Positions 4,580-21,233 of a stretch of DNA of 38,805 nucleotides are shown here, in pieces. Numbering within the stretch: the first letter of the stretch is position 1; each line of letters starts with the position of its first letter. The position numbers and the translations under genes were made by a program. The DNA lies in the UHGV virus genome UHGV-0123934, one strand, 5' to 3'. The notes below the pieces were generated by a model. That model did no database searches, was not told where the DNA came from, and saw nothing but the letters and a program-made list of their open reading frames with translations. The DNA comes from a virus.

Positions 4580-4846
4580 TTGAAGTACAGTGAATTAATG
4601 AATTACGCTATATGTTTAACGGACAAAACATTGCGATTTTTCGTAACTCGCTGAAACCCGACAGTGGGTATCAAAGAGTTGCGTGATCGAGGTACGCTCC
4701 CGACCGAAGACGGGGAGGGGTCGAAAATCCTTCGTGCCCTGCGGAAAGCAATCGCGCCCCAAGTCTTCTGTACGCGCGTGCAGAATCGAGGGAAACGGAA
4801 AATCCGTATTGCGAGAATAAAATGCTCTTTGAAATATCGAACGGAA

Positions 4847-5734
4847 TCAATACTCGATTTTGAAATAGTCGAGTACTGCCTTGTAGTTGTCTTGCGCCGT
4901 CAGGCAGGTGTCTGTCAGATACTCCCGAACTTCCGACCAGCGTTGCAGACCGCGATAGTAGAACATCTTCAGGTCGTCGGTGATGATGAACGGTACGATG
5001 CCGTTTGCCAGACACTCCTTGAACATCACGAGCCGCCCGACACGTCCGTTGCCGTCCTGAAATGGATGGATCGCCTCGAAGCGCTGGTGCAAATCGAGGA
5101 TATCCTCCAACGATTTCTGCCGCTTGGCATTGTATTCGGCAAGCAACGCTTTCATCTCCCGACCTACGTTCTCGGGCGCGGTCGTTTCATGGCCGCCTAC
5201 TTCGTTGGGCAGGCGTTTGTAGGTGCCGACGGCAAACCACTCCTTGCGGCTGTCCGATGTTCCCGACTTGAGTAGGGCGTGCAGCTCCTTGATAAGCGAC
5301 TCGGTCAGCCGCTCCTCGGCACGGTCGATAACGAGGTCGATACAGCGGAAGTGGTTCGTCGTTTCGATAATGTCATCTACACGGACGCTTTCGCCCTCGA
5401 TGCCGACGGTGTTCGTCTCGAAGATATAACGCGTCTGGTCGTGCGTCAGTCGGCTGCCTTCAATGTGGTTGGAGTTATAGGTCAGATCGATCTGCGTCTT
5501 GTGGTAAATGCCGCCTTTGAGCTGCATTCCCTTTTGTTCGCGCAGGGCAGCGAGCAACGGCGACAGTTTCGAACGGCGGCGTTTGCGTGCGGGCAAAGCG
5601 GCATCGGCGGGAATGTTCCATGTTTTTCCCGTGAGGAATGCGCCCTCGATTTTACCTTCGGCGCAATAGTTACGCGCCGTGCGCTCCGAAATGCCGTATT
5701 TCTCGGCGAATGCGACTACTGAAATATATTCCAT
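4847..5734 (-). CDS. Fic family protein (Fic/Doc AMPylation-type toxin) with N-terminal HTH
   Basis: Canonical Fic motif HPFQDGNGRVGR; candidate inhibitory-helix motifs SNHIEG and TVGIEG; N-terminal HTH-like FAEKYGISERTARNYCAEGKI. Confidence 0.9.
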   Translation of the reverse strand: MEYISVVAFAEKYGISERTARNYCAEGKIEGAFLTGKTWNIPADAALPARKRRRSKLSPLLAALREQKGMQLKGGIYHKTQIDLTYNSNHIEGSRLTHDQTRYIFETNTVGIEGESVRVDDIIETTNHFRCIDLVIDRAEERLTESLIKELHALLKSGTSDSRKEWFAVGTYKRLPNEVGGHETTAPENVGREMKALLAEYNAKRQKSLEDILDLHQRFEAIHPFQDGNGRVGRLVMFKECLANGIVPFIITDDLKMFYYRGLQRWSEVREYLTDTCLTAQDNYKAVLDYFKIEY

Positions 5735-5845
5735 AAACTCCGTCTATCGGCAAGTATGATTCCGATTTCGATGCCAAAGATAATAATATTTGCCGGTATC
5801 GGCAAATTATAAATAGAACTTTTATTAGATAATAAATGTGCTGAA

Positions 5846-6325
5846 ATGACGAAAGGTCGTAAGAAATTGCCGGATGAATTGAAATCCCTGCGCGGAACGG
5901 ACCAGCCGTGCCGCATGGCCGGCAACGCTGCTTCGACGGGAACCGCCGTCGCGGCATTGCCGCGCTCCGGACTGAAAGGTACAGCGAAGAAGGTGTTCGA
6001 GGTCGTGGCGACGGAGCTGATCCACAAATGCCTGTTGGATGTCGTCGGGGTGGATCTGGTAGTCGCCTATGCTCGCGAGATGGGGTTGTACCACGATATG
6101 ATGCGCGAAACCGAAAAAGAGGGATACACCATCGAAGTGATGACGAAACACGGTACAACGACGGTCGTCAACCCCAAACGCAAAGTCGCCGAATCAGCAC
6201 TCGCCAATGCCAAGGCGTTGGCTGCCGAGTTCGGGTTGACGCCTGCCAGTCGCAGCCGCGTGGCGGCTTTGCTTTCGGATAATACCCCGAAAGACGACTT
6301 CGCCGAGTTCGAGGAGATAAAATAG
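5846..6325 (+). CDS. terS: phage terminase small subunit (P27-family-like)
   Basis: 159-aa protein immediately upstream of the large terminase; conserved-looking stretches AKKVFEVVATEL and GLTPASRSRV. Confidence 0.75.
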   Translation: MTKGRKKLPDELKSLRGTDQPCRMAGNAASTGTAVAALPRSGLKGTAKKVFEVVATELIHKCLLDVVGVDLVVAYAREMGLYHDMMRETEKEGYTIEVMTKHGTTTVVNPKRKVAESALANAKALAAEFGLTPASRSRVAALLSDNTPKDDFAEFEEIK

Positions 6326-6335
6326 TTATCGCAAT

Positions 6336-8003
6336 ATGGCTGCCGTTAAGAAATATCCCGCCGAACTTTATGCCGAGCAGGTGCGCTCCGGCGAGATTCT
6401 CGTCTGCGAGTATGTCCGACTCGCTGTCAGACGCTACTACACCGACCTCGACCGTGCGCTCGACAAGGGATGGTATTTCGATAAGAAAGCCGCTCTGCGT
6501 GCGATCCACTTCATCGAAAAACTCAAACATACCAAAGGCGAGTGGGCGGGACAGCGGTTCCGACTGGAGCCGTGGCAGCAGTTCGTGCTGTGGAATATCT
6601 TCGGGTGGAAGAATGCCGACGGCTCGCGCCGCTTCCGATACGCTTATATCGAGATCGCCCGCAAGAACGGCAAGACTGCGTTGTCCGCCGGTGTCGGGTT
6701 GTATATGCTCTTCGCCGACGGCGAGAGCCGCCCGGAGGTTTACTCGGCCGCGACGGTCAAGGATCAGGCGAAGATATGCTTTTCGGATGCTGTGGAGATC
6801 GTCAAGGCGACCGATCTGAAAAACTACCTCACGCCATACCGAAACTCGATCGTCTATGAACTCAAAGGCGGTACGATGAAACCTCTCTCGTCGGATTACG
6901 GCACGCACGACGGTCTGAATCCGAGTTGCGGCATCATCGACGAGTTTCACGCCCATAAGGACAGCGGAATGTTCGACGTCATCAAGTCGGCTTTCGGTGC
7001 ACGGCGGCAGCCGCTCATGTTCATCATCACGACAGCCGGTTTCAACAAGTCGGGAGCCTGCTATGCCTATCGGGAAAATGTCATCAAAGTGCTGCGCGGC
7101 GTGAACGAGGACGATTCATTGTTCGGCATCATCTACACGCTCGACGATAAGTCGGAGTGGGACGACCCGAAGATGTGGATCAAGGCCAATCCCAACCTCG
7201 GCGTGAGTTTGAGTGCCGACTACCTCGCCGACCAAGTGAAGGACGCCAAGAACCGCCCCGAAGCCGTCCGCAACGTGATGACGAAGAACGTCGATCTATG
7301 GGTCGATGCCGGACGGACGTGGATTTTGGACGATGTATGGATGAAGTGCATCGGTACGATCGATCCCGCCGACCTGAAAGGCTGCGCCTGCTGGGGCGGT
7401 TTGGACCTCTCGAACGTGTCGGATATTACGGCTTACGTGCTGCTCTTCCACGAGAACGACCGTTTCCAGTTGCTGCCGCACTTTTGGGTTCCCGAAGAGA
7501 AGATGCTGGAGAAGATCCGCAAAGAGAATATCAACTACGACAAGTGGGTGGCGGAGGGCTATGTAACCGTTACGCCGGGCAATGTCATCGATTACGACTT
7601 CGTCAAGGCGGATATCCTGCGCATCGTGGCCGATTACGACCTGCGGACATCGGCTTACGACCGTTGGAACTCTTCGCAGACGATCATCGACTTGCAGAAC
7701 GAGGGGATGGAGTGCAACCCCTTCGGACAGGGCTATGGCTCGATGTCGGCGCCGACCAAGGAGTTCGAGAAACTGGTGCTGACCGGGAAGATCGAGCACT
7801 TCGGCAATCCGGTCCTGCGGTGGATGCTCGCATCGACGCTCGTCAAGACCGATCCTGCGGGCAATATCAAACCCGATAAGGAGAAATCGACGCAGAAGAT
7901 CGACGGCATCGTAGCCTCGATCATGGCACTCGGAGAGTGGATGACCGCACAGGCCGACGACGAGAGCAACCCGTATGAAAACAGAGGATTATTGACTTTA
8001 TAA
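6336..8003 (+). CDS. terL: phage terminase large subunit
   Basis: 555-aa protein with ATPase-like IEIARKNGKTALSAG and nuclease-domain acidic residues; position between TerS and portal. Confidence 0.9.
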   Translation: MAAVKKYPAELYAEQVRSGEILVCEYVRLAVRRYYTDLDRALDKGWYFDKKAALRAIHFIEKLKHTKGEWAGQRFRLEPWQQFVLWNIFGWKNADGSRRFRYAYIEIARKNGKTALSAGVGLYMLFADGESRPEVYSAATVKDQAKICFSDAVEIVKATDLKNYLTPYRNSIVYELKGGTMKPLSSDYGTHDGLNPSCGIIDEFHAHKDSGMFDVIKSAFGARRQPLMFIITTAGFNKSGACYAYRENVIKVLRGVNEDDSLFGIIYTLDDKSEWDDPKMWIKANPNLGVSLSADYLADQVKDAKNRPEAVRNVMTKNVDLWVDAGRTWILDDVWMKCIGTIDPADLKGCACWGGLDLSNVSDITAYVLLFHENDRFQLLPHFWVPEEKMLEKIRKENINYDKWVAEGYVTVTPGNVIDYDFVKADILRIVADYDLRTSAYDRWNSSQTIIDLQNEGMECNPFGQGYGSMSAPTKEFEKLVLTGKIEHFGNPVLRWMLASTLVKTDPAGNIKPDKEKSTQKIDGIVASIMALGEWMTAQADDESNPYENRGLLTL

Positions 8004-8318: not shown

Positions 8319-8479
8319 TATATTACATTGGTTATCAATATGAAAACGGAGTGCGATTAACTTTCTATTAAAAAATATGTAAAAAATTATGTAGAGAACA
8401 AAAATTTACTTACCTTTGCAAAAGAAACCCACGAGTGCGAGTCGTGGGCAATGTAAAAACATATAAATACGTTTTTCTA

Positions 8480-9112
8480 ATGAAAAACTTTACAAAAGTA
8501 AGTTTATTTTCGGATTCTACAAATTCCGAGGAACAAAAAATCTATGAGTCGATGACTCGATTCGTAAGTAAAGAACTTTATTTGCTTCCTCAAATGATTG
8601 GGGATGCTTATTCTGAAACTAATGACGAATTGGGGATTCTTCCACCTCACGCAAGAAGGCGGAATAGCCGACCTGTTCGAGTAAATGAAAAGATAGCCCA
8701 GAAATGTGCTGAAATCTACCCCGAATATTTCAGAGAAGTTTCGAGTGGTAAATTTATGCTTTATGTACCGGGATTCGCTCAATTTCACATTGTGAAAACG
8801 AATAGGGGCAAATTGCCTCCCAGACGTACTCGACAAGCTCAAAATGAGGTATATCAACAGAACCTACCATTCAAAGGTTGCCCAATTTTGCATATCGGTC
8901 ATGATCATCAATATGGTCATACAAGTGTAACCTTAATGTTATATGATGCAGGACAATGCGTGTGGAGTTGTTCTTTCAGTGATATTTTGTACATCCAAAA
9001 CTCTACAGCGGAACAGACTATTTCATTGACGCAAACATATAATGATTCTAAGGAGGTTTTTGCCAAGCCAAAAGCCAATGCTCGAAAGAAGGTGACAGTA
9101 GAGGCTATTTGA
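8480..9112 (+). CDS. hypothetical protein (AT-rich island cargo; candidate effector partner of the HTH-ImmA gene)
   Basis: First ATG (8480) of ORF 8435..9112; AT-rich codon usage unlike neighbours; preceded by TAccTTTG -7-like motif (8411-8418) and a 7-bp-stem hairpin (8428-8448); 31 nt upstream of HTH-ImmA gene on same strand. Confidence 0.5.
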   Translation: MKNFTKVSLFSDSTNSEEQKIYESMTRFVSKELYLLPQMIGDAYSETNDELGILPPHARRRNSRPVRVNEKIAQKCAEIYPEYFREVSSGKFMLYVPGFAQFHIVKTNRGKLPPRRTRQAQNEVYQQNLPFKGCPILHIGHDHQYGHTSVTLMLYDAGQCVWSCSFSDILYIQNSTAEQTISLTQTYNDSKEVFAKPKANARKKVTVEAI

Positions 9113-9143
9113 TGCGGACAATTTGTGAGAGCTTAAATGATAT

Positions 9144-10250
9144 ATGAATGTTAATAACAAAATGATCACTATCGCACGAGAAGTGCGAGGAATGACTCAG
9201 ATGCAATTATCTGCGTCTATACCTAAACTATCTCAAGGAAATCTCTCAAAAATGGAAAAAGGGATTATTGGGGTTACGGAGGAAGTTATTGAGAAAATAG
9301 CCTCTGCCCTCAATTTTCCCGTTTCGTTCTTTTATGAAGAATATACATTCCCTCCATTTAGCAATGTATATTACCGAAAGCTCATTACGGCTTCTGTCAA
9401 AAAGATGTCTCAATTGGAGGCTATCTTTAAAACAACTATGTTTGTTGTAGACAACTTGTTGGAGTCTATTGATATCCCAGAATATACCATCCCAGAGTTG
9501 GATGTTGAGAATGAATTTGCAAAAACGAATACAAACAAGACAACCCAGCGAGTTGAAGATATTGCTCGAAGAGTTCGTTTTGTATTGGGCATTCCAGATG
9601 GACCAATAACAGATATTTCGGATATTCTTGAAAAAAATGGTATTATCATTATTGAAATAAATACTGATATGGCAAAATTTTCAGGAATGTCTGCCCAAAC
9701 TCAGAATGGGGCAAAAATAATTTTCTTAAACGGAAATATGTCCAATGATCGTAAGCGATTTACCATTGCTCACGAATTAGGACATATTGTCATGCATATT
9801 CCTTTCATTGCAATATCTGAAGATAGAGATTTGGAGAATGAAGCGAATGTTTTTGCAGGCGAATTTTTAATGCCTTATAAGGATTTTCGTAAAGATGTCT
9901 CTCAATATTTATCATACAACCATTTGGATATGTTGAAGGCATATTGGAGAGCATCGAAACAGGCGATTATTCGAAAGGCATATCAAGATCAAATTATTTC
10001 TGCACAGAAATACCAATCTTTGATGGTACAAATGAGTATGAATGGGGAAAGAAAATGCGAACGCATAATTGTTGATTTCCCTGATCCTAAATTATTAAAA
10101 AAAATAATAGATGTTTTTTACGATGATTTAGGTTATACTCAAGATGACCTTACGCAAGCTATTAGTGTAAATCTTAATAGTTTGCCTTTAATGATTAATA
10201 AAAGACCTAATATGATTTTATTGAGGTCCAAGACCAGAATACAATTATAG
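9144..10250 (+). CDS. XRE-family HTH fused to ImmA/IrrE-type zinc metallopeptidase (COG2856-like)
   Basis: N-terminal HTH (MITIAREVRGMTQMQLSASIPKLSQGNLSKMEKG) and HEXXH motif in FTIAHELGHIVMH followed by E at ENEANVFAGEFLMP. Confidence 0.8.
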   Translation: MNVNNKMITIAREVRGMTQMQLSASIPKLSQGNLSKMEKGIIGVTEEVIEKIASALNFPVSFFYEEYTFPPFSNVYYRKLITASVKKMSQLEAIFKTTMFVVDNLLESIDIPEYTIPELDVENEFAKTNTNKTTQRVEDIARRVRFVLGIPDGPITDISDILEKNGIIIIEINTDMAKFSGMSAQTQNGAKIIFLNGNMSNDRKRFTIAHELGHIVMHIPFIAISEDRDLENEANVFAGEFLMPYKDFRKDVSQYLSYNHLDMLKAYWRASKQAIIRKAYQDQIISAQKYQSLMVQMSMNGERKCERIIVDFPDPKLLKKIIDVFYDDLGYTQDDLTQAISVNLNSLPLMINKRPNMILLRSKTRIQL

Positions 10251-10311
10251 TAGGGACAATATCCATTTAATATTCTTTCCACTTCATTAAGTTTGCCGCA
10301 AAGCAAGTTTG

Positions 10312-11529
10312 ATGAAGTGGTTCCCATTTTTGCATAGAGGCGAGCGGCGCGATATTTCATCGGCCGAGTTCGAGGCTGCGGTGAATAAAGTCATTACCGC
10401 CGACACGGTCGCCGATGCCACGCGCCAGCCGTATATCACTGAGGAGGGCGCACTGAACCTTACAGCGGTTTGGGCTTGCGTGCGAATCCTCTCCGAGACG
10501 GTCGGAACGCTCCCTTTGCACCTCTATCGCCGTACTGCTCGCGGTCGAGAGCGACAGTACGACCATCTTTGCCACCGACTCGTGCAGGCTCCCAACTCCT
10601 ATTCCACACGTTTCGACCTGATGCACCATCTGATGGTCTCATGCGCTCTGTGGGGCAACGGCTATGTCCGCATTTTTCGGGACAAACGCTATCGTCCCGT
10701 TCGGCTGAAGTTCATCCATCCTGCCCGTATCGAGCCGCTCCTTACCGACAACGACGAACTCTTCTACCGATCGGACACGGGCGAACTGCTCCCGAACGAA
10801 GACGTCATCCACTTGCGCGGACTCTCGACCAATGGCTATAAGGGCAAAAGTCCGATCGCCGTCCATCGCGACAACCTCGCACTCTCCGTCTCTGCGCAAC
10901 TCTACGGTAAACGCTTCTTCGATCAGGGCGGCAATATGTCGGGCGTCTTCAAATATCCCTCGACGCTCAAGCCCGAAGCCTACCAGCGGCTCAAGAAAGA
11001 CCTCATCGCCCAATCGGTCGGTTTGCACAACGCTCACGTCCCGCTGCTGTTGGAGGGCGGTATGACCTACGAACGCATCTCCATTCCTCCTGAAGATGCG
11101 CAGTTCATCGCTACGCGCAAGTTCCAAAAGACCGAGATCGCCACCATCTACGGCATTCCGCCGCATATGATCGCCGATTTGGAACGTGCCACGAACAACA
11201 ACATCGAGCATCAGGGAATGGAGTTCGTGCAGTATTGCCTGATGCCGTACCTCGTCCGCATCGAGGAGGAGTTCAACCGCAAATTGCTACGCGAGGAGGA
11301 GTTCGGGGAGTATTACTTCCTCTTCGGTCTGAACGGACTGCTGCGCGGCGATGCCAAGACCCGCTCGGAATACTACAAGAATATGAATATCGTCGGCGCG
11401 ATGTCTGCCAACGAGATCCGCTCCCTCGAAGATATGAACTCCTACGATGGCGGCGACGAATACTTCGTACAAATGAACATGCAGCCGGTAACGACTGCCG
11501 TAAAACCTGAAACGAATGGAACCGAATAA
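10312..11529 (+). CDS. phage portal protein (HK97 family)
   Basis: About 405-aa protein between terminase and prohead protease with portal-like core (GNGYVRIF, SPIAVHRDNLALSV, IYGIPPHMI); ATG at 10312 follows the TTG used by the ORF track. Confidence 0.85.
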   Translation: MKWFPFLHRGERRDISSAEFEAAVNKVITADTVADATRQPYITEEGALNLTAVWACVRILSETVGTLPLHLYRRTARGRERQYDHLCHRLVQAPNSYSTRFDLMHHLMVSCALWGNGYVRIFRDKRYRPVRLKFIHPARIEPLLTDNDELFYRSDTGELLPNEDVIHLRGLSTNGYKGKSPIAVHRDNLALSVSAQLYGKRFFDQGGNMSGVFKYPSTLKPEAYQRLKKDLIAQSVGLHNAHVPLLLEGGMTYERISIPPEDAQFIATRKFQKTEIATIYGIPPHMIADLERATNNNIEHQGMEFVQYCLMPYLVRIEEEFNRKLLREEEFGEYYFLFGLNGLLRGDAKTRSEYYKNMNIVGAMSANEIRSLEDMNSYDGGDEYFVQMNMQPVTTAVKPETNGTE

Positions 11530-12157
11530 TGAAATAGAGATCCGGAGCCTTATCGGCGATCTGCATATCGAGAGCCGCGAGGAGGGAATCGTCAGTCGGA
11601 CGATCGTCGGCTATGCCGCGAAATTCGAGAGTTGGAGCGCCCCTATTATGGGGTGGTTCCGGGAGAAGATCGCGCGGGGCGCATTCGACGGGTGCGACCT
11701 GTCGGACGTCATCATGTGTTTCAACCATAACACCGATTCGATCCTCGCCCGCACGACAAGCGGGACGCTGCGATTGGAGGTGGACGACGTCGGTCTGCGC
11801 TTCGCGTTCGAGGCTCCGAATACGACTTCGGGGAGCGATATGCTGGAGTTGGTACGCCGGGGCGACGTCTCGAAATGTTCGTTTCGCTTCGGCGTCGAGC
11901 AGGACGAGTGGCAGTATGCCGACGAGCAGAACGGTCTCGCGATGGACGAGCGGACGATACTCCGGTTCTCGCGTGTGGTAGATGTGTCGCTCGTGGTATT
12001 TCCTGCCTATCCCGAAACCGAAGCCTCGGTGCGGTATCTCGAAGAGCGGAAAGCCGAGTGGTTATCATCAAATAAAACGGAAGCATCGAATCATTCTTAT
12101 AAAATAAAATCTCGAAACCGTTTGTGTGATTTTCTTAAAGTTGCAAATAGGCACTAA
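11516..12157 (+). CDS. HK97-family prohead protease; C-terminal about 30 codons AT-rich, possibly altered by the adjacent island
   Basis: VGYAAKFES, REKIARGAF, CFNHN, KCSFRFG motifs; start overlaps portal stop. Confidence 0.8.
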   Translation: MEPNNEIEIRSLIGDLHIESREEGIVSRTIVGYAAKFESWSAPIMGWFREKIARGAFDGCDLSDVIMCFNHNTDSILARTTSGTLRLEVDDVGLRFAFEAPNTTSGSDMLELVRRGDVSKCSFRFGVEQDEWQYADEQNGLAMDERTILRFSRVVDVSLVVFPAYPETEASVRYLEERKAEWLSSNKTEASNHSYKIKSRNRLCDFLKVANRH

Positions 12158-12176
12158 CCGAAATTTCCATATCTTT

Positions 12177-12206
12177 GTAACAGCCGATGATTTCATCGGC
12201 TGTTAC
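12177..12206 (+). other. perfect 14-bp inverted repeat gtaacagccgatga-tt-tcatcggctgttac (terminator or operator)
   Basis: Read directly from the sequence; lies between the prohead protease stop and the first R-M island gene. Confidence 0.5.
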
Positions 12207-12236
12207 TTGTTATACAAATTAAGTAAATAAAGCATA

Positions 12237-12815
12237 ATGAAACTACGAATTCCAAACTCGGAAGTTCAAGAACTTCTAACCGACAAGTCTTTTGAGTATC
12301 CTAAATACGCGACTCAAATTATGAACTTGGCGAATCAAAATGCACAAGGTACTCGTCCGAATATTGTAGGTCAAATGAGCGACCTGATTCAAGAATTCGG
12401 AGCGGGATCGATGATTGAATGGGATGCTTGGTATAAGAACGGTCACCCGGAAGCGATTAAGACTGCAACCGAACGAGTATATCGGATGATTGAATTATTT
12501 AAAGAGAGTATTCAGACCATCGATAAGGATATGGTCCGAAAATGGATCGAAGAGCTTGTTGTTGTCAAAACTTATTGCGGATTAAAATTCCAAGAGGCCA
12601 TTCTCCGTAAAATTGCAGAAGAAAAGCAGTCGGACTACAGATTGGCGACCCCAGAAGAAGAAGCACAAGGTATAGATGGATTCATTGGAAATTCCCCGGT
12701 TAGTATCAAGCCGATCACGTATCGGATTATGAATGAACTACCGGAGCACATCGATGTGCCGATTATTTACTATGACAAGAAGAAATCAGAAATAGTGGTT
12801 GAATATAATTTTTGA
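12237..12815 (+). CDS. putative type II restriction endonuclease (or REase subunit)
   Basis: 192-aa AT-rich ORF convergent with the DNA methyltransferase in the same island; call rests on gene context only. Confidence 0.35.
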   Translation: MKLRIPNSEVQELLTDKSFEYPKYATQIMNLANQNAQGTRPNIVGQMSDLIQEFGAGSMIEWDAWYKNGHPEAIKTATERVYRMIELFKESIQTIDKDMVRKWIEELVVVKTYCGLKFQEAILRKIAEEKQSDYRLATPEEEAQGIDGFIGNSPVSIKPITYRIMNELPEHIDVPIIYYDKKKSEIVVEYNF

Positions 12816-12819
12816 TATT

Positions 12820-13440
12820 ATGCCATATACTGGAGGACCATTGAATACATTAAATGGGAAAATGGGTATTTCTGCTCCGGAGAATAGTGTACCTGTTATG
12901 AAATTAATTCGCATACATCATCCTAAAAGTAAAGAGGAATTAGTCGAATTAATAAAATGGCATTCTGAAAACAAGTGTGAATGCGGTATTATTAGTAGAG
13001 GAACGGTTGAACAATTTGGGAAAAATTTATATGAAGCTCAAAAAGCATTTTGGGGAGAATATAAATTTTCATTAGCAATATGCATCCAATGGGAATATGA
13101 TTTATTTGTTTTACAATCATTAAAAGGTTCTTTGGTTGAAGATGCTGCTATTAGGACTTTAGAGACCCAATTAGAGCCTGAATATGCTTTTTTAGAAGCA
13201 ACCGGTTATATGGATGAAGAATTGCGAATTGATATTATTTGCAAATATAACAATAGCATTATTGCCGGCATTCAGGTCAAACCTTTAACATTTTTAATGA
13301 TGAGACGAGAAATTATTACTTATAATGCTATGGCTAATCAAAAATGGGATAAACCTGTATATTATTTATATTATGACGAAAATGAAAATTTCGTAAATAT
13401 TGAAGAAGTAAAGTCTCATTTAAAATCATCGATTCTTTAA
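12820..13440 (+). CDS. hypothetical protein, R-M island (possible second REase subunit or specificity factor)
   Basis: ATG at 12820, 5 nt after the upstream stop; AT-rich; stop overlaps the MTase stop (convergent). Confidence 0.35.
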   Translation: MPYTGGPLNTLNGKMGISAPENSVPVMKLIRIHHPKSKEELVELIKWHSENKCECGIISRGTVEQFGKNLYEAQKAFWGEYKFSLAICIQWEYDLFVLQSLKGSLVEDAAIRTLETQLEPEYAFLEATGYMDEELRIDIICKYNNSIIAGIQVKPLTFLMMRREIITYNAMANQKWDKPVYYLYYDENENFVNIEEVKSHLKSSIL

Positions 13441-14582
13441 AATGTTAATGCAATCTGCGTTCGGGAAGGAATAGAAATAATACGCTTTCTATTCCCTACT
13501 TTTATTTCAGCAGTGACCGGAATAGTGTCCGCATATTCAGCAGTAATCATGTGATTGTTCCCTCTTATTGCAGATAAATAGACGAACCGCATATCTGTTT
13601 CTTGTGAAGTCATGACCGGCATCTGGAGATGCTCGTTGAAATGTTTGATCTCTTTATTTTGCGTTCGTTGCGAAACGAATTCTTTATGTGCTGCTATTCG
13701 ATTAGCAATAACTTCGTTCATTTGGTCAACCGATGATGAATGAATATTATCGGCTATAATATCTATAAACTTATCATCAATTTCATAACCAATACTATTG
13801 CGATTGCTCATGATAGATGCAATCGTAGTTGTACCGGTTCCTAAAAAAGGATCCATTACCGTATCTCCTTGCAACGAATACATATTGATTAGACGGTATG
13901 GAACTTCCAATGGATAGGCTGCACTCCTGTCTCGACTTTCTGCTGATATTTTTTGTTTGGTACCTTTTATATTGTCCCACAAATCGGAAAACCACACATT
14001 GCGTTCCTCCCAAAAGAACGAACTCTCACGGCGTTTCTGTTTGTCTATTGCAGATTTGAATTCGCGTTTACCTCCTTTGCGAAAAATCAAAATCCATTCG
14101 TGTTCCAATGTTACATATGCTCCTGCAGGAAGCATTCCGGACCCCATAAATTTATTTGGAGCATTCGTTTGCTTCCTCCAAATAATGTTTGGAAGATTTA
14201 CATACCCGTGAGCGGTGAAATAGTTAATTATACGGGAATGATTGGAGTATAAAGCAAAATTGCCATTGAATGTTCGCGTCGCATCACCGACATTGATACA
14301 GACGATTCCACCCGGGACAAGGACACGTGTCACCTCATCCCATACTTTATCCAGCTCTTGATGCATTAATTCAAAAGCCGCATCCGGCTGGTTTTCATCA
14401 AGGGCATTTGCAATACAAGGATTTTGTTTGCTTAATATCTCATCCCACATTTGAATCATGGGATATGGCGGAGATGTAACGACTAACTCGACCGAGTTGT
14501 CATTAATTTCTTTCATCTGTTGGGCAGCCCCAGTATATATGCTATGCGTTGTCTTCATAATTTCAAAGCAAAGATAATTCAT
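13437..14582 (-). CDS. DNA methyltransferase, beta-class amino-MTase (N4-cytosine or N6-adenine)
   Basis: Motif IV TSPPY near the N-terminus and motif I DPFLGTGTT further C-terminal (IV before I = beta class). Confidence 0.85.
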   Translation of the reverse strand: MNYLCFEIMKTTHSIYTGAAQQMKEINDNSVELVVTSPPYPMIQMWDEILSKQNPCIANALDENQPDAAFELMHQELDKVWDEVTRVLVPGGIVCINVGDATRTFNGNFALYSNHSRIINYFTAHGYVNLPNIIWRKQTNAPNKFMGSGMLPAGAYVTLEHEWILIFRKGGKREFKSAIDKQKRRESSFFWEERNVWFSDLWDNIKGTKQKISAESRDRSAAYPLEVPYRLINMYSLQGDTVMDPFLGTGTTTIASIMSNRNSIGYEIDDKFIDIIADNIHSSSVDQMNEVIANRIAAHKEFVSQRTQNKEIKHFNEHLQMPVMTSQETDMRFVYLSAIRGNNHMITAEYADTIPVTAEIKVGNRKRIISIPSRTQIALTF

Positions 14583-14694
14583 TTCCTCCTATAATCCTCC
14601 ATTATTCAACTTTATTCTAAAATTGCGACAAAGTTTCCTTTTAGAGGCTGTTCGGTGGATTAAGTTTGCTCCCGAAGAATCAATAACGAGATTT

Positions 14695-15894
14695 ATGAGC
14701 AAACTGAAAACCCTTAAAGAGAGCCGTGCTGCCGTGTTCGCAAAGATCGACGAGTTGCGTACCGCGACCGACGGTCGCGAGATGACCTCCGAGGAGCAGG
14801 AGAGGTGGAACACGCTGCTTGCGGAGTACGAGCAGGCCGACCGAGCTGTCGAAGCCGAGGAGCGCTACGTCGATATCGAGCGCCGGCAAGCCGAGCAGCA
14901 GTATGTTCGACAGACTTCCGGCGAGCAGCCCGACGAACGTCGTGCCGAGGAGTACCGCACCGCTTTCCGCGACTACCTGCTGCGCGGCGCAGCGGATATT
15001 TCGCCCGAGCACCGGACACTCTTCGAGCAGCGCGCCGGCATCACGGGTTTGTCGGGCGGCGTGATCGTCCCTTCGTCGCTGGCCGACAGCATCGAGGTTG
15101 CGCTGAAAGCCTACGGCGGGATGTTCGAGGCGGGTTCCATTCTCACCACGAGTAAGGGCGGCGACCTGATTATGCCGACGGTAAACGATACCGATGCGAG
15201 GGCTACGGTCGTTGCCGAATACCAGCAGTCGACCAAGTCCGCACCGTCGTTCGGCTCCGAAACGCTCAAAGCCTATACCTACCGCACGCCCATCGTTCCC
15301 GTGTCGTTGGAGCTGTTGCAGGACTCGGCATTCGACCTCGAATCGCTGCTCTCGGGTCTGCTGGCCGAGTCGTTCGGACGGGGCATCAACTACGACCTTA
15401 CGCGCGGCGACGGCAAGGGCAAACCCAAGGGCATCGTCGAGTGGGCGCACGCCTGTGCTACTAACCCCTCTGCTGCAGGCATCTCGCTCGATGCTCTGAT
15501 CGAGCTCGTCAAGGGCGTGGATTCCTCCTATGCCCGACACGGGCGGTTCATGTTCAACCGCAATACGCTCTACTCGCTCGTCAAGATCAAGGATACGACG
15601 GGACGCTACATCTGGCAGGAGGGTGCGAAGGACGGCACGCCGCCGACCTTGTTCGGCAAGGCGTATATCCTGAACGACGACCTCGACGATGCCGCAGCGG
15701 GCAAGACTTCGGTGTTGTTCGGCGACTTCTCGAAGTTCAAGATCCGTATGGTCCGATCGTTCCGCGTGATCCGCCTGAACGAGCTGCTCGCCGAGTACCT
15801 TTCGATCGGGCTGTTCGGCTTCGCCCGCACGGACGGCATCCTGTTGGACGCCGGTACGCACCCCGTCCATAAGTTGGTGCATAAATCGGCGTAG
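14695..15894 (+). CDS. phage major capsid protein (HK97 family) with N-terminal coiled-coil delta domain
   Basis: ATG 14695 inside ORF 14623..15894; charged coiled-coil N-terminus then capsid-like core; position after prohead protease. Confidence 0.85.
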   Translation: MSKLKTLKESRAAVFAKIDELRTATDGREMTSEEQERWNTLLAEYEQADRAVEAEERYVDIERRQAEQQYVRQTSGEQPDERRAEEYRTAFRDYLLRGAADISPEHRTLFEQRAGITGLSGGVIVPSSLADSIEVALKAYGGMFEAGSILTTSKGGDLIMPTVNDTDARATVVAEYQQSTKSAPSFGSETLKAYTYRTPIVPVSLELLQDSAFDLESLLSGLLAESFGRGINYDLTRGDGKGKPKGIVEWAHACATNPSAAGISLDALIELVKGVDSSYARHGRFMFNRNTLYSLVKIKDTTGRYIWQEGAKDGTPPTLFGKAYILNDDLDDAAAGKTSVLFGDFSKFKIRMVRSFRVIRLNELLAEYLSIGLFGFARTDGILLDAGTHPVHKLVHKSA

Positions 15895-17249: not shown

Positions 17250-17602
17250 TGGATTTCAAGAAACATCTGATCGCGCTTTTGGAGCGTGAGATTCCAGAAT
17301 TGGCGGATAAGATTCAAGCCGGTGCGGTCGATGCCCGGACGCCTGCGCCTTTCGCCGCGTTCTCCGTACCGGAAGAGACGCCCGTAAGGACGCTACACGG
17401 CATCGTCGGCTATCGGACGATGTTCGAGGTAGCGGTCTATGACAGCAGGTTCTCCGGTGCGGAACGCCTCAAGCATCGGGTGATCGCCGCCTTGGAGGGT
17501 GCGGAGTTCGACGGCAAGCGCAGCCGCTTCGTCTCCTCGGCGGCGGAATACTATGCAGACTACGACGTGCACGGTGCGACGATGACATTCAGAATTGTTT
17601 AA
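17246..17602 (+). CDS. putative tail completion/terminator protein
   Basis: 118-aa ORF overlapping upstream stop (ATGA), last gene of the head-tail joining block; no motif. Confidence 0.4.
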   Translation: MMDFKKHLIALLEREIPELADKIQAGAVDARTPAPFAAFSVPEETPVRTLHGIVGYRTMFEVAVYDSRFSGAERLKHRVIAALEGAEFDGKRSRFVSSAAEYYADYDVHGATMTFRIV

Positions 17603-18242
17603 CCCAATCCGTAAAATCGAGTTTTATGAGTTGCCAGATTTTATTTTCAAGACAAACAGGGTCGGGATCACCATCCGCTCTCGTAAAATCGGTCAATCCC
17701 GCAAGGCATTCTTCGCGCGATGCTCCGTAGGGATATCGTGCTGCGTATAAAGCGAGCAGCTGCTCGATAGAATAGGCATTATGAAGAAGATGCAAATCCC
17801 AAAAGTCCTTTTTACGGCCGCCGCGGGCGATAACATCCATCTTCATCGCAACGATGTCGTCTACGGACGCCATACGGATCGTATCGTGCTGCTCTGCCGG
17901 GCGGATGAAGTCATCCGTATAGAACAGGTCGAGTTTTACGGACTTTTCCCGGTTCTGTCCGATGATATATGAGGCCCCGAAGCCGACGATTTCTCCGCAA
18001 TCACCCTGACAATAAGGAAACTCTTTGCGCAGAATATCCTGCAATTTATGGAAATCCAAAGATCTATACTCGGCATCGGTAAATAGATCTATATCGTCGG
18101 ACATACGATGTCCATAGCGCAAACTGAGCGAGGTGCCGCCGACAAGGCGGAACGGGGCGAATGCTTCGAGAGTCATCAGATGTTCGAGTGACGACCGCAG
18201 AATGGGTTTGACAGTATGGTATTGCAACGCTTTATGCTTCAT
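17589..18242 (-). CDS. nucleotidyltransferase, AbiEii/AbiGii toxin-like (DUF1814-like)
   Basis: N-terminal FRLVGGTSLSLRYGHRMSDDIDLF (GGT...S.DIDL polymerase-beta-like NTase signature); start overlaps upstream partner. Confidence 0.75.
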   Translation of the reverse strand: MKHKALQYHTVKPILRSSLEHLMTLEAFAPFRLVGGTSLSLRYGHRMSDDIDLFTDAEYRSLDFHKLQDILRKEFPYCQGDCGEIVGFGASYIIGQNREKSVKLDLFYTDDFIRPAEQHDTIRMASVDDIVAMKMDVIARGGRKKDFWDLHLLHNAYSIEQLLALYAARYPYGASREECLAGLTDFTRADGDPDPVCLENKIWQLIKLDFTDWVKQF

Positions 18243-18753
18243 AATCGAGATATTGCTTCAGGTTCTTTTTGATAACCGATGAGAATGGAGATGACGGCGA
18301 TAATCCGATCTTGCTTAAAATGGTTTCTCGACCATAAAAACGGATGGTTTCGATGATCTCTTCTTCATTGCCTCGCTCCATTACGCGATTGATAACGTAA
18401 CTGCTATGGGCATCCCAATTGATATTGTCGAACGATGTGTCCCAAAACAGGGAAGGTCGGTATTTTTCGAGATCCGGATGGTGAGCGGACGAAAGTTTTC
18501 GCTTCTCCTGCACAATGTCGTAGTGAACCTGCAGGGTCATGAGTATGCCTTCCTCTAATGCGAGCGCATGTTCGATTCGCAACGACAGCGGAATATTCAT
18601 CGACCTGCGGCCGCGAATAATGGCGCTTATGGTTTGGGGGTGCTCACCGATAGATTTAGCGAACCGACCGCTTTTCAGGTTTCGATTATTCAGCTCGCGT
18701 TGTAAGAAGAGTCCCGGATGTACTCCTTTCAGTATGTCGATTAAATTGTTCAT
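18232..18753 (-). CDS. HigA-like HTH antitoxin/regulator with C-terminal extension
   Basis: VHPGLFLQREL ... ISAIIRGRRSMNIPLSLRIEHALALEEGILMTLQVHYDI resembles the HigA/VapI antidote HTH; 11-nt overlap with the NTase gene; ATG at 18753 (track start 18762 is TTG). Confidence 0.6.
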   Translation of the reverse strand: MNNLIDILKGVHPGLFLQRELNNRNLKSGRFAKSIGEHPQTISAIIRGRRSMNIPLSLRIEHALALEEGILMTLQVHYDIVQEKRKLSSAHHPDLEKYRPSLFWDTSFDNINWDAHSSYVINRVMERGNEEEIIETIRFYGRETILSKIGLSPSSPFSSVIKKNLKQYLDYEA

Positions 18754-18817
18754 ACAACGCAAAAGTAAACATATTTGTTTATTTTAACAAATTTTATGCC
18801 GAAATATTTTTACGCTT

Positions 18818-20450: not shown

Positions 20451-21233
20451 ATGGCAAGATTGAAAACTCCGATTTCATACTATGGCGGCAAGCAGATGCT
20501 TTTGAAGCATATCCTGCCGCTGATTCCCGAACATACGCTCTACACGGAAGCCTTCTGCGGCGGCTGCGCCGTGCTGTTCGCCAAGCCGCCCGCGCAGTGC
20601 GAAGTCATCAACGACACGAACACCGAATTGGTGAACTTCTACCGCGTGGCGCAGACCCAGTATGCGGCACTCAAGGCGATGATCGACGCGACGCTCCACA
20701 GCCGCGAGATACACGCGCACGCACGGCATATCAACGAGCATCCGTCGTTCTTCACGCCCGTCGAGCGGGCTTGGGCTGTATGGGTCTGCACGAAGTTGGG
20801 CTTCGCCTCGATGATCGACGGAACGTTCGGCTACGACCGCAGCGGTACGACGACGCTGAAACTCCGCAATGCGAAAGAGGCCTTCACCGAGGAGTTGTGC
20901 GGACGCCTCGGCCGCGTTACGGTCGAGTGCGAGGACGGCATCGATGTCATCCGCCGCTACGACTGTCCCGAGGCGTTCCACTTCGTCGATCCGCCCTATG
21001 TCGGCAGCGACTGCGGACACTACAACGGTACGTTCGACGAGGAGGATTTTTCGAGGCTGCTCGACACGCTCGCAACGGTCGAAGGGAAGTTCATGCTCAC
21101 GATGTTTCCGCACGAGAAGATCGAACGCCTCGCCGCCCGGCACGGCTGGACGATCCATCGGCTCGACCGCACCATCACCGCCTCGAAAGTTTCCCGCCGC
21201 CGGCAGGAGGAGTGGATTACGACGAACTACTGA
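20451..21233 (+). CDS. dam: DNA adenine methyltransferase (Dam-like, alpha class)
   Basis: N-terminal ISYYGGKQMLLKHILPLIP...EAFCGGCAVLF and motif IV FVDPPY. Confidence 0.85.
   Translation: MARLKTPISYYGGKQMLLKHILPLIPEHTLYTEAFCGGCAVLFAKPPAQCEVINDTNTELVNFYRVAQTQYAALKAMIDATLHSREIHAHARHINEHPSFFTPVERAWAVWVCTKLGFASMIDGTFGYDRSGTTTLKLRNAKEAFTEELCGRLGRVTVECEDGIDVIRRYDCPEAFHFVDPPYVGSDCGHYNGTFDEEDFSRLLDTLATVEGKFMLTMFPHEKIERLAARHGWTIHRLDRTITASKVSRRRQEEWITTNY

Follow-up and report, generated by a model that had tools for sequence, protein, structure and literature searches.

Introduction

Why do the head-assembly genes of a gut prophage enclose a block of AT-rich DNA with genes of its own, and what does this block do? 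The question is raised by UHGV virus genome UHGV-0123934, a stretch of 38,805 nucleotides (nt), called the window below and used for all coordinates unless another locus is named. An earlier note on this DNA, made from the letters alone, proposed that a Type II restriction-modification (R-M) island lies between the genes for the prohead protease and the major capsid protein. Each element described there is found at the coordinates given or close to them, and the central interpretation is supported. We consider it quite probable that positions 12060–14623 are a self-contained moron, a Type IIP R-M system of the MjaI family, in a temperate HK97-like phage of Alistipes. The window consists of the prophage and adjoining host DNA, and the host is Alistipes, since public records assign the capsid cluster and the neighbour proteins to Alistipes dispar or Alistipes sp.

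The cassette and its three genes

The cassette occupies 2.56 kb (12060–14623) and has a GC content of 0.37, while that of the flanks is 0.57–0.60; the local value drops from 0.60 to 0.30–0.42 over approximately 12000–14600, where the AT-rich block had been placed. It contains three intact genes with no stops or frameshifts: R1 and R2 on the plus strand and, convergent with them, M on the minus strand. All three are under purifying selection, with nonsynonymous divergence (dN) of 0.10–0.27, saturated synonymous divergence (dS), and dN/dS of 0.04–0.16 where it is computable. Identical copies of the cassette proteins are present in 130–210 metagenomic contigs. A methyltransferase gene with SPPY and FxGxG-type motifs and separate, immediately adjacent nuclease genes form the arrangement of a Type II R-M system.

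The M gene (13437–14558, minus strand) encodes a beta-class DNA methyltransferase of 373 amino acids (aa), matching PF01555 (E = 1e-38) and the PADLOC model MTase_II (3e-149). The open reading frame (ORF) reaches ATG 14582, which would yield 381 aa, but the start is most likely ATG 14558, because the gene callers and the homologues use the latter and a promoter-like box lies inside the longer ORF. The 3' end of M and the stop of R2 overlap by 4 nt. TSPPY (motif IV) is at residues 36–40 and DPFLGTGTT (motif I) about 200 residues further, that is, in the beta-class order, as the earlier note had it. The relatives of M in PDB include TTHA0409 and N4-cytosine methyltransferases. N4-cytosine enzymes, among them M.MjaI, M.MthZI and M.BfaI of the CTAG systems, have been described with the SPPY form (PMC5867850, PMC11033074), and this motif suggests that M is of the N4-cytosine type.

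The R1 gene (12237–12815, plus strand) encodes a Type II restriction endonuclease of 192 aa. By its profile match it is a canonical member of the MjaI family: the score against PF09568 is 219.1 bits at a gathering threshold of 22.7 bits, and the match covers the entire model (positions 1–164 of 164). The number of detected homologues is 2977, an approximate count from a word-indexed search. Catalytic D147 and S156-x-K158 are invariant in the alignment of 60 sequences. MjaI itself is an experimentally active CTAG enzyme (PMC2615612) with a predicted PD-(D/E)XK fold (PMC2441816, PMC3424549). The MjaI, MthZI and BfaI systems recognize CTAG, and their methyltransferases are beta-class enzymes with SPPY that produce N4-methylcytosine (m4C) (PMC2615612, PMC11033074, PMC5867850). 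PDB sequence searches yielded no relatives of R1 or R2, and NCBIfam had no informative match for either. In public records both proteins of the window are already annotated as 'MjaI restriction endonuclease [Caudoviricetes sp.]'.

The R2 gene (12820–13440, plus strand) starts 4 nt after the R1 stop and encodes a predicted divergent MjaI-family PD-(D/E)XK nuclease of 206 aa; the ORF opens at TTG 12799 (213 aa). Its PF09568 score, 22.5 bits (E = 1e-4), is just below the gathering threshold of 22.7 bits. However, nearly all R2 homologues among the 120 matches listed have a precomputed PF09568 match, and some are named 'MjaI family restriction endonuclease' by NCBI. A profile–profile comparison of R1 and R2 (alignments of 60 and 62 sequences) aligned the C-terminal catalytic core only (hhalign E = 0.009, probability 4.7%), with about 22% identity restricted to this core. 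The core residues E105/E106, D147 and S156-x-K158 of R1 correspond to E92/D94, D138 and Q152-x-K154 of R2 and are invariant or nearly so, hence both proteins have the conserved D...(S/Q)xK residues of PD-(D/E)XK nucleases. The N-terminal halves are unrelated. The N-terminal domain of R2 features H33, H48, C53 and C55 (window positions about 12916–12984), invariant in all 62 aligned sequences and with no equivalent in R1; these residues may form a metal site. R2 thus appears to be a distant paralogue of R1, whose membership in the MjaI family is borderline by the Pfam score and is supported by homologues, fold and motif. The two small plus-strand ORFs, for which the earlier note gave 192 and about 207 aa, are seen here at 192 and 206 (or 213) aa, and both show nuclease features.

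The protease–capsid junction

The left neighbour of the cassette is the gene of the HK97-type prohead serine protease (S78; 11516–12157, plus strand, 213 aa; PF04586 E = 3e-40, TIGR01543). The right flank is the gene of the HK97-family major capsid protein (14695–15894, plus strand, 399 aa; PF05065 E = 6e-52), which starts at ATG 14695, TTG 14623 merely opening the ORF. With the capsid protein we retrieved 52 related viral loci, denoted by L numbers, and located both the protease and the capsid gene in about 40 of them. The gap between these genes varies from 3 to 4586 nt, and its cargo falls into 12 clusters. The MjaI-type R-M system is found in L001, L009 and L037, the last also carrying AbiE-like and NERD genes, and a variant with another gene, W, instead of R2 is found in L011, L023 and L034. 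Other phages have a BsuBI/PstI-type (L004–6, L029, L032) or XhoI-type (L003, L030, L033) R-M system, AbiEii/AbiEi (L002, L007, L008), a NERD nuclease (L012), a C5 methyltransferase alone (L020) or with Vsr and an unknown gene (L024), a DUF2971/PDC-S31 protein (L039), or small ORFs (L014/15, L018/42); the empty-site phages have no cargo. The junction is a hotspot of defence cargo. A megablast search of the locus against cultured phage genomes gave no match; MjaI-family genes as such are already annotated in cultured cyanophages.

The right boundary of the cassette, at about 14623, is immediately 5' of the conserved GCGACAAAGTTTC. The latter (14625–14637) and TAAGTTTG (14661–14668) form the control region of the capsid gene (14625–14668, plus strand), which marks the right edge. 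All relatives, with or without cargo, have GCGACAA(A/T)GTTTC about 70 nt and TA[AT]GTTTG about 30 nt before the capsid ATG. In the empty-site phages (L010, L019, L031, L035, L036) the distance from the protease stop to the capsid ATG is 84 nt.

A similar pair, GGACAAT...TTAAGTTTGC, precedes the portal gene at 10255–10297. The architecture shared by the capsid and portal genes, G(C/G)GACAA(A/T)... and, after about 25 nt, TTAAGTTTGC, might serve as a late promoter of the phage, with an activator site upstream.

The left boundary is situated inside the protease gene, at about 12060 or about codon 182: the relatives agree up to ...RK(A/Q)E(W/Y)L (RKAEWL in the window) and then diverge. The remaining part of the gene, 12060–12157, is an AT-rich tail, and the GC content of its last 99 nt is 0.30, compared with 0.56–0.59 in the empty-site relatives. 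Only the carriers of the MjaI-type system share the tail allele R[LF]C[DE]FL[KR][VI]xN, which ends in ...RLCDFLKVANRH. It is present in L009, L011 and L037, though the proteases as a whole are just 74–75% identical. At that, the terminal motif S/R-x-R-L-x-x-x-L-[KR] is retained in all protease tails, including those of the window and the empty-site relatives. Judging from these alignments, the native tail is exchanged for a homologous AT-rich version that travels with the cassette. The earlier note had suggested that the insertion replaced the native C-terminus; replacement stands, loss does not, and destruction of the C-terminus by the insertion is ruled out by the retained family-wide motif.

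The C-terminal tail of the HK97 protease reportedly directs the protease into the prohead, as Duda and Hendrix are said to have found. By analogy, the terminal motif is probably a capsid-targeting signal.

We also compared the coding sequence of the protease tail with the upstream region of a non-phage cassette (L070), and the similarity was too weak to interpret.

One endonuclease or two

R1 and R2 could be two enzymes or two parts of one. To compare gene orders, we considered 54 R2-centred metagenomic loci with enough flank; the census used tblastn with a limited query set, which may overlook divergent partners and inflate the number of 'solitary' R2 loci. The order R1-R2 with convergent M is found in 21 of the 54 loci. 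It also occurs in Bacteroidota chromosomes at 55–70% identity, for instance in a 3.7-Mb contig and in Mucilaginibacter angelicae. The chromosomal cassettes are usually preceded by an HTH_3 controller (C) gene of 69–72 aa (L055, L056, L071–L087), and at least eight of the 21 loci have such a gene. R2 accompanied by M only is seen in two of the 54 loci (L077, L106) and likewise in a Saprospiraceae locus (L062). In 22 loci neither R1 nor this methyltransferase family is nearby, and in some of these R2 is adjacent to a C5 methyltransferase (L121, L129). Many viral contigs have R1 and M only.

In close relatives of the window phage, with R1 97–98% identical, an unrelated protein of 124 aa, W, takes the place of R2. 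W proteins (114–124 aa) are encoded at 6322–6696 in L034, 2785–3159 in L023 and 6389–6733 in L011. The swap has its breakpoints exactly at the stop codons of R1 and M. A second sub-lineage shows this alternative of R2 and W as well (L009 versus L011), and one integrase/AlpA/Rep element (L070, W at 4616–4969) has R1-R2-W and convergent M. W has no Pfam matches; PHROGs yields phrog_2113 alone, with function unknown. W could act as an alternative R-M regulator. The cassette at 12060–14623 contains no helix-turn-helix (HTH) ORF or C gene and no C-box.

Could R1 and R2 together, as subunits, make up a single heteromeric endonuclease of the BbvCI, Bpu10I and BslI kind, neither of them being active alone here? 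Such a composition is doubtful, but there are data in its favour, and these weigh against two independent enzymes. The genes are neighbours on the same strand with a spacer of only 4 nt, R1-R2-M is kept as a unit in the 21 loci, and the three proteins have diverged together, being 55–67% (R1), 66–69% (R2) and 61–63% (M) identical in L055, L056, L060 and L061. Moreover, both proteins retain the catalytic residues, and the unrelated N-terminal halves together with H33, H48, C53 and C55 of R2 suggest different DNA- or metal-binding modules. On the other hand, the loci with R2 and M, and the many loci with R1 and M or with R1, W and M, show each type without the other, and the R1-type homologues outnumber the R2-type ones about 6.6:1, the R2 subfamily comprising 451 proteins of about 203 aa (again an approximate word-indexed count). 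A heteromer is also difficult to reconcile with the clean replacement of R2 by an unrelated 124-aa gene next to an almost unchanged R1. Finally, asymmetric-site heterodimers, the Type IIT systems, require two methyltransferases or a fusion, while here there is one. Since each nuclease type occurs without the other beside the methyltransferase family of M, we prefer the reading in which the two nucleases are autonomous and a single methylation protects against both. Hence, of the suggestion that the small ORFs are the endonuclease or its subunits, the nuclease nature is upheld, and the subunit role is no likelier than two autonomous enzymes.

We found no two-subunit enzyme of the BfaI or MjaI type in the literature searched, and no description there of an R1-R2-M cassette with swappable R2, W and C modules. 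It is conceivable, and we would regard it as rather improbable, that the R1-R2 pair represents an undescribed kind of two-nuclease CTAG restriction under one m4C methyltransferase, either heteromeric or with divided labour (e.g. different substrates or resistance to anti-restriction), with a middle slot that may hold R2, W or both and a C gene that may be added, and that such cassettes exchange defence and a capsid-targeting protease tail as a unit.

R2-type genes are often located without R1 and without a beta-class methyltransferase within 4 kb (L057–L059, at 5001–5609; L088–L138). In L057–L059 the R2-type gene directly follows genes of an OLD-TOPRIM ATPase and a UvrD helicase, a Gabija-like pair, and in L117 it adjoins a T4-type baseplate gene.

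Recognition site

The family of R1 and the SPPY motif of M suggest that the cassette probably recognizes CTAG and modifies it to m4C. CTAG is the most depleted 4-bp palindrome of the 38.8-kb window, with no occurrences against 31.5 expected under the maximal-order Markov model, and other carriers of the MjaI-type system have three sites against 78 expected. Two considerations weigh against the proposal. First, the depletion is just as strong elsewhere: the observed and expected counts are 0 and 56 in the carriers of the PstI-type system, 0 and 36 in those of the XhoI-type system, 0 and 29 in the AbiE carriers, 11 and 83 in the empty-site phages, and 0 and 8.6 in the host part of the window. 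CTAG avoidance is lineage-wide and does not discriminate phages with the island from those without; it is rejected as a mark of this island in particular, since relatives lacking the island and the host DNA are just as poor in CTAG. Second, the specificity is assigned by family membership only, and the specificity of restriction endonucleases can shift within a family.

An alternative is that the cassette recognizes some other site, or that the specificity of R2 differs from that of R1. Apart from the assignment being by family alone, this is suggested by the low similarity of R2 to R1 (about 22%, core only, with different N-terminal domains), by the R2-type genes located beside C5 methyltransferases, and by the roughly 40% of R2 loci that have no beta-class methyltransferase nearby. 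We nevertheless think it unlikely. R1 matches the MjaI model from end to end with 219 bits, and the architecture of M is the SPPY beta-class one described for all characterized CTAG m4C enzymes; the single methyltransferase has to protect from both nucleases; CTAG, as noted, is the most depleted 4-bp palindrome of the window, and in gut phages CTAG is one of the most frequently reported 4mC motifs (PMC10711547). CTAG thus remains the probable site.

Two more palindromes are rare in the window, CTGCAG (4 versus 16.2 expected) and CTCGAG (1 versus 22.6), and both are strongly depleted in all relatives (L001–L042) as well. GGCC, CATG and AGCT are depleted two- to threefold. GATC is not depleted (211 versus 232), and this fits the presence of a D12-class (Dam-like) adenine methyltransferase gene in the tail region (20451–21233, plus strand; PF02086 in L053/L054). 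CTAG, CTGCAG and CTCGAG are the sites expected for the three types of R-M cargo at the hotspot, and their depletion is consistent with an arms race between sibling prophages or with host-wide R-M pressure.

Defence or addiction

The proposed role of the cassette is that of an R-M system defending the lysogen. Two facts weigh against this reading. Sibling phages contain almost no CTAG, and the system would offer little protection against them; and the absence of a C gene or another obvious delay mechanism is unusual for a mobile R-M system. The cassette might instead be mainly an addiction module, stabilizing the prophage by post-segregational killing or spreading selfishly. Type II R-M systems are known to act as selfish addiction modules (Kobayashi 2001, cited in PMC11033074), and a system ineffective against CTAG-free siblings, and highly mobile at that (it is found in phages, in the integrase/Rep element L070 and in chromosomes), would be in line with such behaviour. 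However, the host DNA in the window is itself free of CTAG, and few chromosomal targets weaken post-segregational killing; the other cargoes of the hotspot are defence or abortive infection genes (AbiE, NERD, other R-M systems, PDC-S31). We find addiction as the main role improbable, and in any case the two roles can coexist.

Hairpin and candidate promoters

A perfect inverted repeat lies between the protease stop and R1 (12177–12206, plus strand), as the earlier note had reported; its 14-bp arms are at 12177–12190 and 12193–12206. It folds as a 13-bp stem with a 4-nt loop (-23.4 kcal/mol, z = -5.2), and none of 200 shuffled sequences was as stable. The hairpin is at the same position in every phage with the MjaI-type system, and all 78 cells of the six-sequence stem alignment are paired (100%). 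In two pairs both bases have changed in a compensatory way (A-U to U-A and U-A to C-G), this covariation resting on essentially one lineage event. In L009/L011 two outer pairs are G-U, so that the pairing is valid on the plus-strand RNA alone. The hairpin is absent from the island-free relatives, from the chromosomal cassettes with the C gene and from the non-phage cassette L068/L070, where the stretch preceding the hairpin, CCATATCTTTGT, is retained.

The −7 promoter consensus of the Bacteroidetes is TAnnTTTG. There are 26 matches to it in the window, while 14.2 are expected, and none of 100 shuffles reaches this number; such boxes precede the R1, M, capsid, portal, Fic and AbiE genes. The match TATCTTTG at 12170–12177 (plus strand) is the candidate promoter of the R1-R2 operon and is kept in all carriers of the MjaI-type system and in L068/L070. 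Another TATCTTTG, at 14569–14576 on the minus strand, upstream of ATG 14558, is the candidate −7 box of the M promoter. A sigma-70 promoter scan produced 12 hits against 10.1 expected, with a model unsuited to a Bacteroidota host, and Rfam gave no significant match in 11500–15000.

The hairpin is probably a terminator or insulator against read-through from the protease gene. Its weak T-tract weighs against this, as does, for the transcription scheme in general, the fact that the promoter roles of the TAnnTTTG boxes rest on consensus matches. That the palindrome acts as a protein-binding operator over the R1 transcription start, for a controller from elsewhere or for M, and not as an RNA hairpin, is very unlikely: its start does coincide with the final base of the −7 box, where an operator would block initiation, its outer half-sites GTAACAGCCG/CGGCTGTTAC are conserved in sequence in all carriers, and other control elements are not visible in the cassette, but the C gene is absent, relatives with the C gene and the promoter-bearing L068/L070 lack the palindrome, the changes in the inner part of the stem compensate each other, the G-U pairs of its outer part work in plus-strand RNA alone, and the length and stability (-22.6 kcal/mol) of the stem are typical of a terminator. 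Of the two roles in the earlier note, terminator and controller-type operator, the former fits better, and the latter is rejected as the main role in view of the missing C gene, the C-bearing relatives without the palindrome and the RNA-type covariation. Neither the palindrome nor the AT-rich tail allele of the protease, both of which that note wished to see compared with island-free relatives, is present in the latter.

Other variable sites

The head module of the prophage also includes genes of the large terminase (6336–8003) and the portal (10309–11529). Between them lies a second AT-rich island (8411–10300, GC 0.36), with an unknown ORF of 225 aa (8435–9112) and an HTH plus M78 peptidase protein (9144–10250; PADLOC RmrA, 6e-58, RosmerTA-like). 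The TAnnTTTG box at 8411 precedes the island, and the 10255–10297 element separates it from the portal gene. The gap between the two genes ranges from 0.36 to 3.5 kb among the relatives, hence it is probably another cargo hotspot.

An AbiEii/AbiEi-like toxin-antitoxin pair (17589–18762, minus strand) is located between the head-tail joining and major tail genes, with a minus-strand TAnnTTTG box at 18760–18767. A near-identical prophage (L054) has no AbiE pair, which makes this a third variable site. The Fic-domain gene (4847–5734, minus strand), with the integrase/HNH region on one side and the small terminase gene on the other, has a minus-strand TAnnTTTG box just upstream (5775–5782) and is likely to be another moron.

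Proposed working of the cassette

In a lysogen, leftward transcription of M would begin at a promoter of its own near 14570, and the enzyme would methylate CTAG in the DNA of both host and prophage, turning its C into N4-methylcytosine. R1 and R2 would be transcribed rightward from the promoter at about 12170, whose −7 box is at the foot of the hairpin, and would cut unmethylated CTAG in incoming foreign DNA; R2 most likely works as an autonomous second nuclease, and the methylation by M would protect against it as well. The lysogen, and hence the prophage, would be protected from superinfection. The phage itself, having no CTAG sites, should be immune to CTAG cutters whether methylated or not. 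As the phage has no CTAG and the host few targets, the C protein may be dispensable in the phage copy.

The hairpin at 12177–12206 would halt read-through from the protease gene, and transcription of the capsid gene would restart from its own conserved promoter. We propose that because of this break in transcription the junction tolerates insertions and became a hotspot of cargo exchange. Homologous recombination in the flanks would carry the cassette from one related phage to another, and since the left crossover is inside the protease gene, the cassette would bring along its own C-terminal tail of the protease.

Significance and comparison with known systems

The cassette marks a site of cargo exchange in the head genes of Alistipes prophages that form a widespread family in the human gut. 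In the siblings this site holds at least three R-M types, AbiE, NERD and further defence genes, and the family avoids CTAG, CTGCAG and CTCGAG; the locus is thus a compact natural system for studying an arms race among related gut prophages. The recurrent pairing of R1 and R2 under one methyltransferase poses a simple, testable question in restriction enzymology. If the CTAG specificity is true, the enzymes are further isoschizomers of BfaI and MjaI. The cassette itself is an ordinary system of an already annotated kind. Less ordinary are the position of the hotspot inside the head-assembly block, the linkage of protease tails to the cargo, and the recurrence of a two-nuclease cassette with swappable R2, W and C modules.

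The closest known systems are MjaI, MthZI and BfaI (Type IIP, CTAG, beta-class m4C methyltransferase, PF09568), with the same motif order, SPPY, similar gene sizes and a PD-(D/E)XK endonuclease. The present system differs in residing in a gut Bacteroidota prophage and in having the second, divergent nuclease R2 between R1 and M; in the literature searched we found no description of such a paralogous nuclease in MjaI, MthZI or BfaI systems. Among C-controlled cassettes (PvuII, Esp1396I and the Bacteroidota C-R1-R2-M loci listed above), the chromosomal ones share the convergent gene order at the identity already given, whereas the prophage copy has neither C gene nor C-box and features a −7 box followed by the hairpin. 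The Type IIT enzymes BbvCI, Bpu10I and BslI resemble the cassette in that two unlike nuclease genes, both with a catalytic site, lie side by side. These enzymes require both subunits, and their asymmetric sites two methyltransferases or a fusion; the cassette, with one methyltransferase and with nuclease types that each occur alone elsewhere, does not fit this definition.

As for the hotspot, the P2 and P4 phages likewise carry alternative, mostly defence cargo at a fixed spot between core genes (Rousset et al. 2022, PMC9122126), and the methyltransferase swaps of Bacteroides prophages (Tisza et al. 2023, PMC10333322) are a modular exchange that fits the events at this junction. Like the morons of HK97 and HK022, the cassette has an atypical GC content and apparently a promoter and terminator of its own. 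What distinguishes it from the known moron and defence hotspots is that it lies within the head-assembly block, with the left boundary in the protease coding sequence and with protease tails specific to the cargo.

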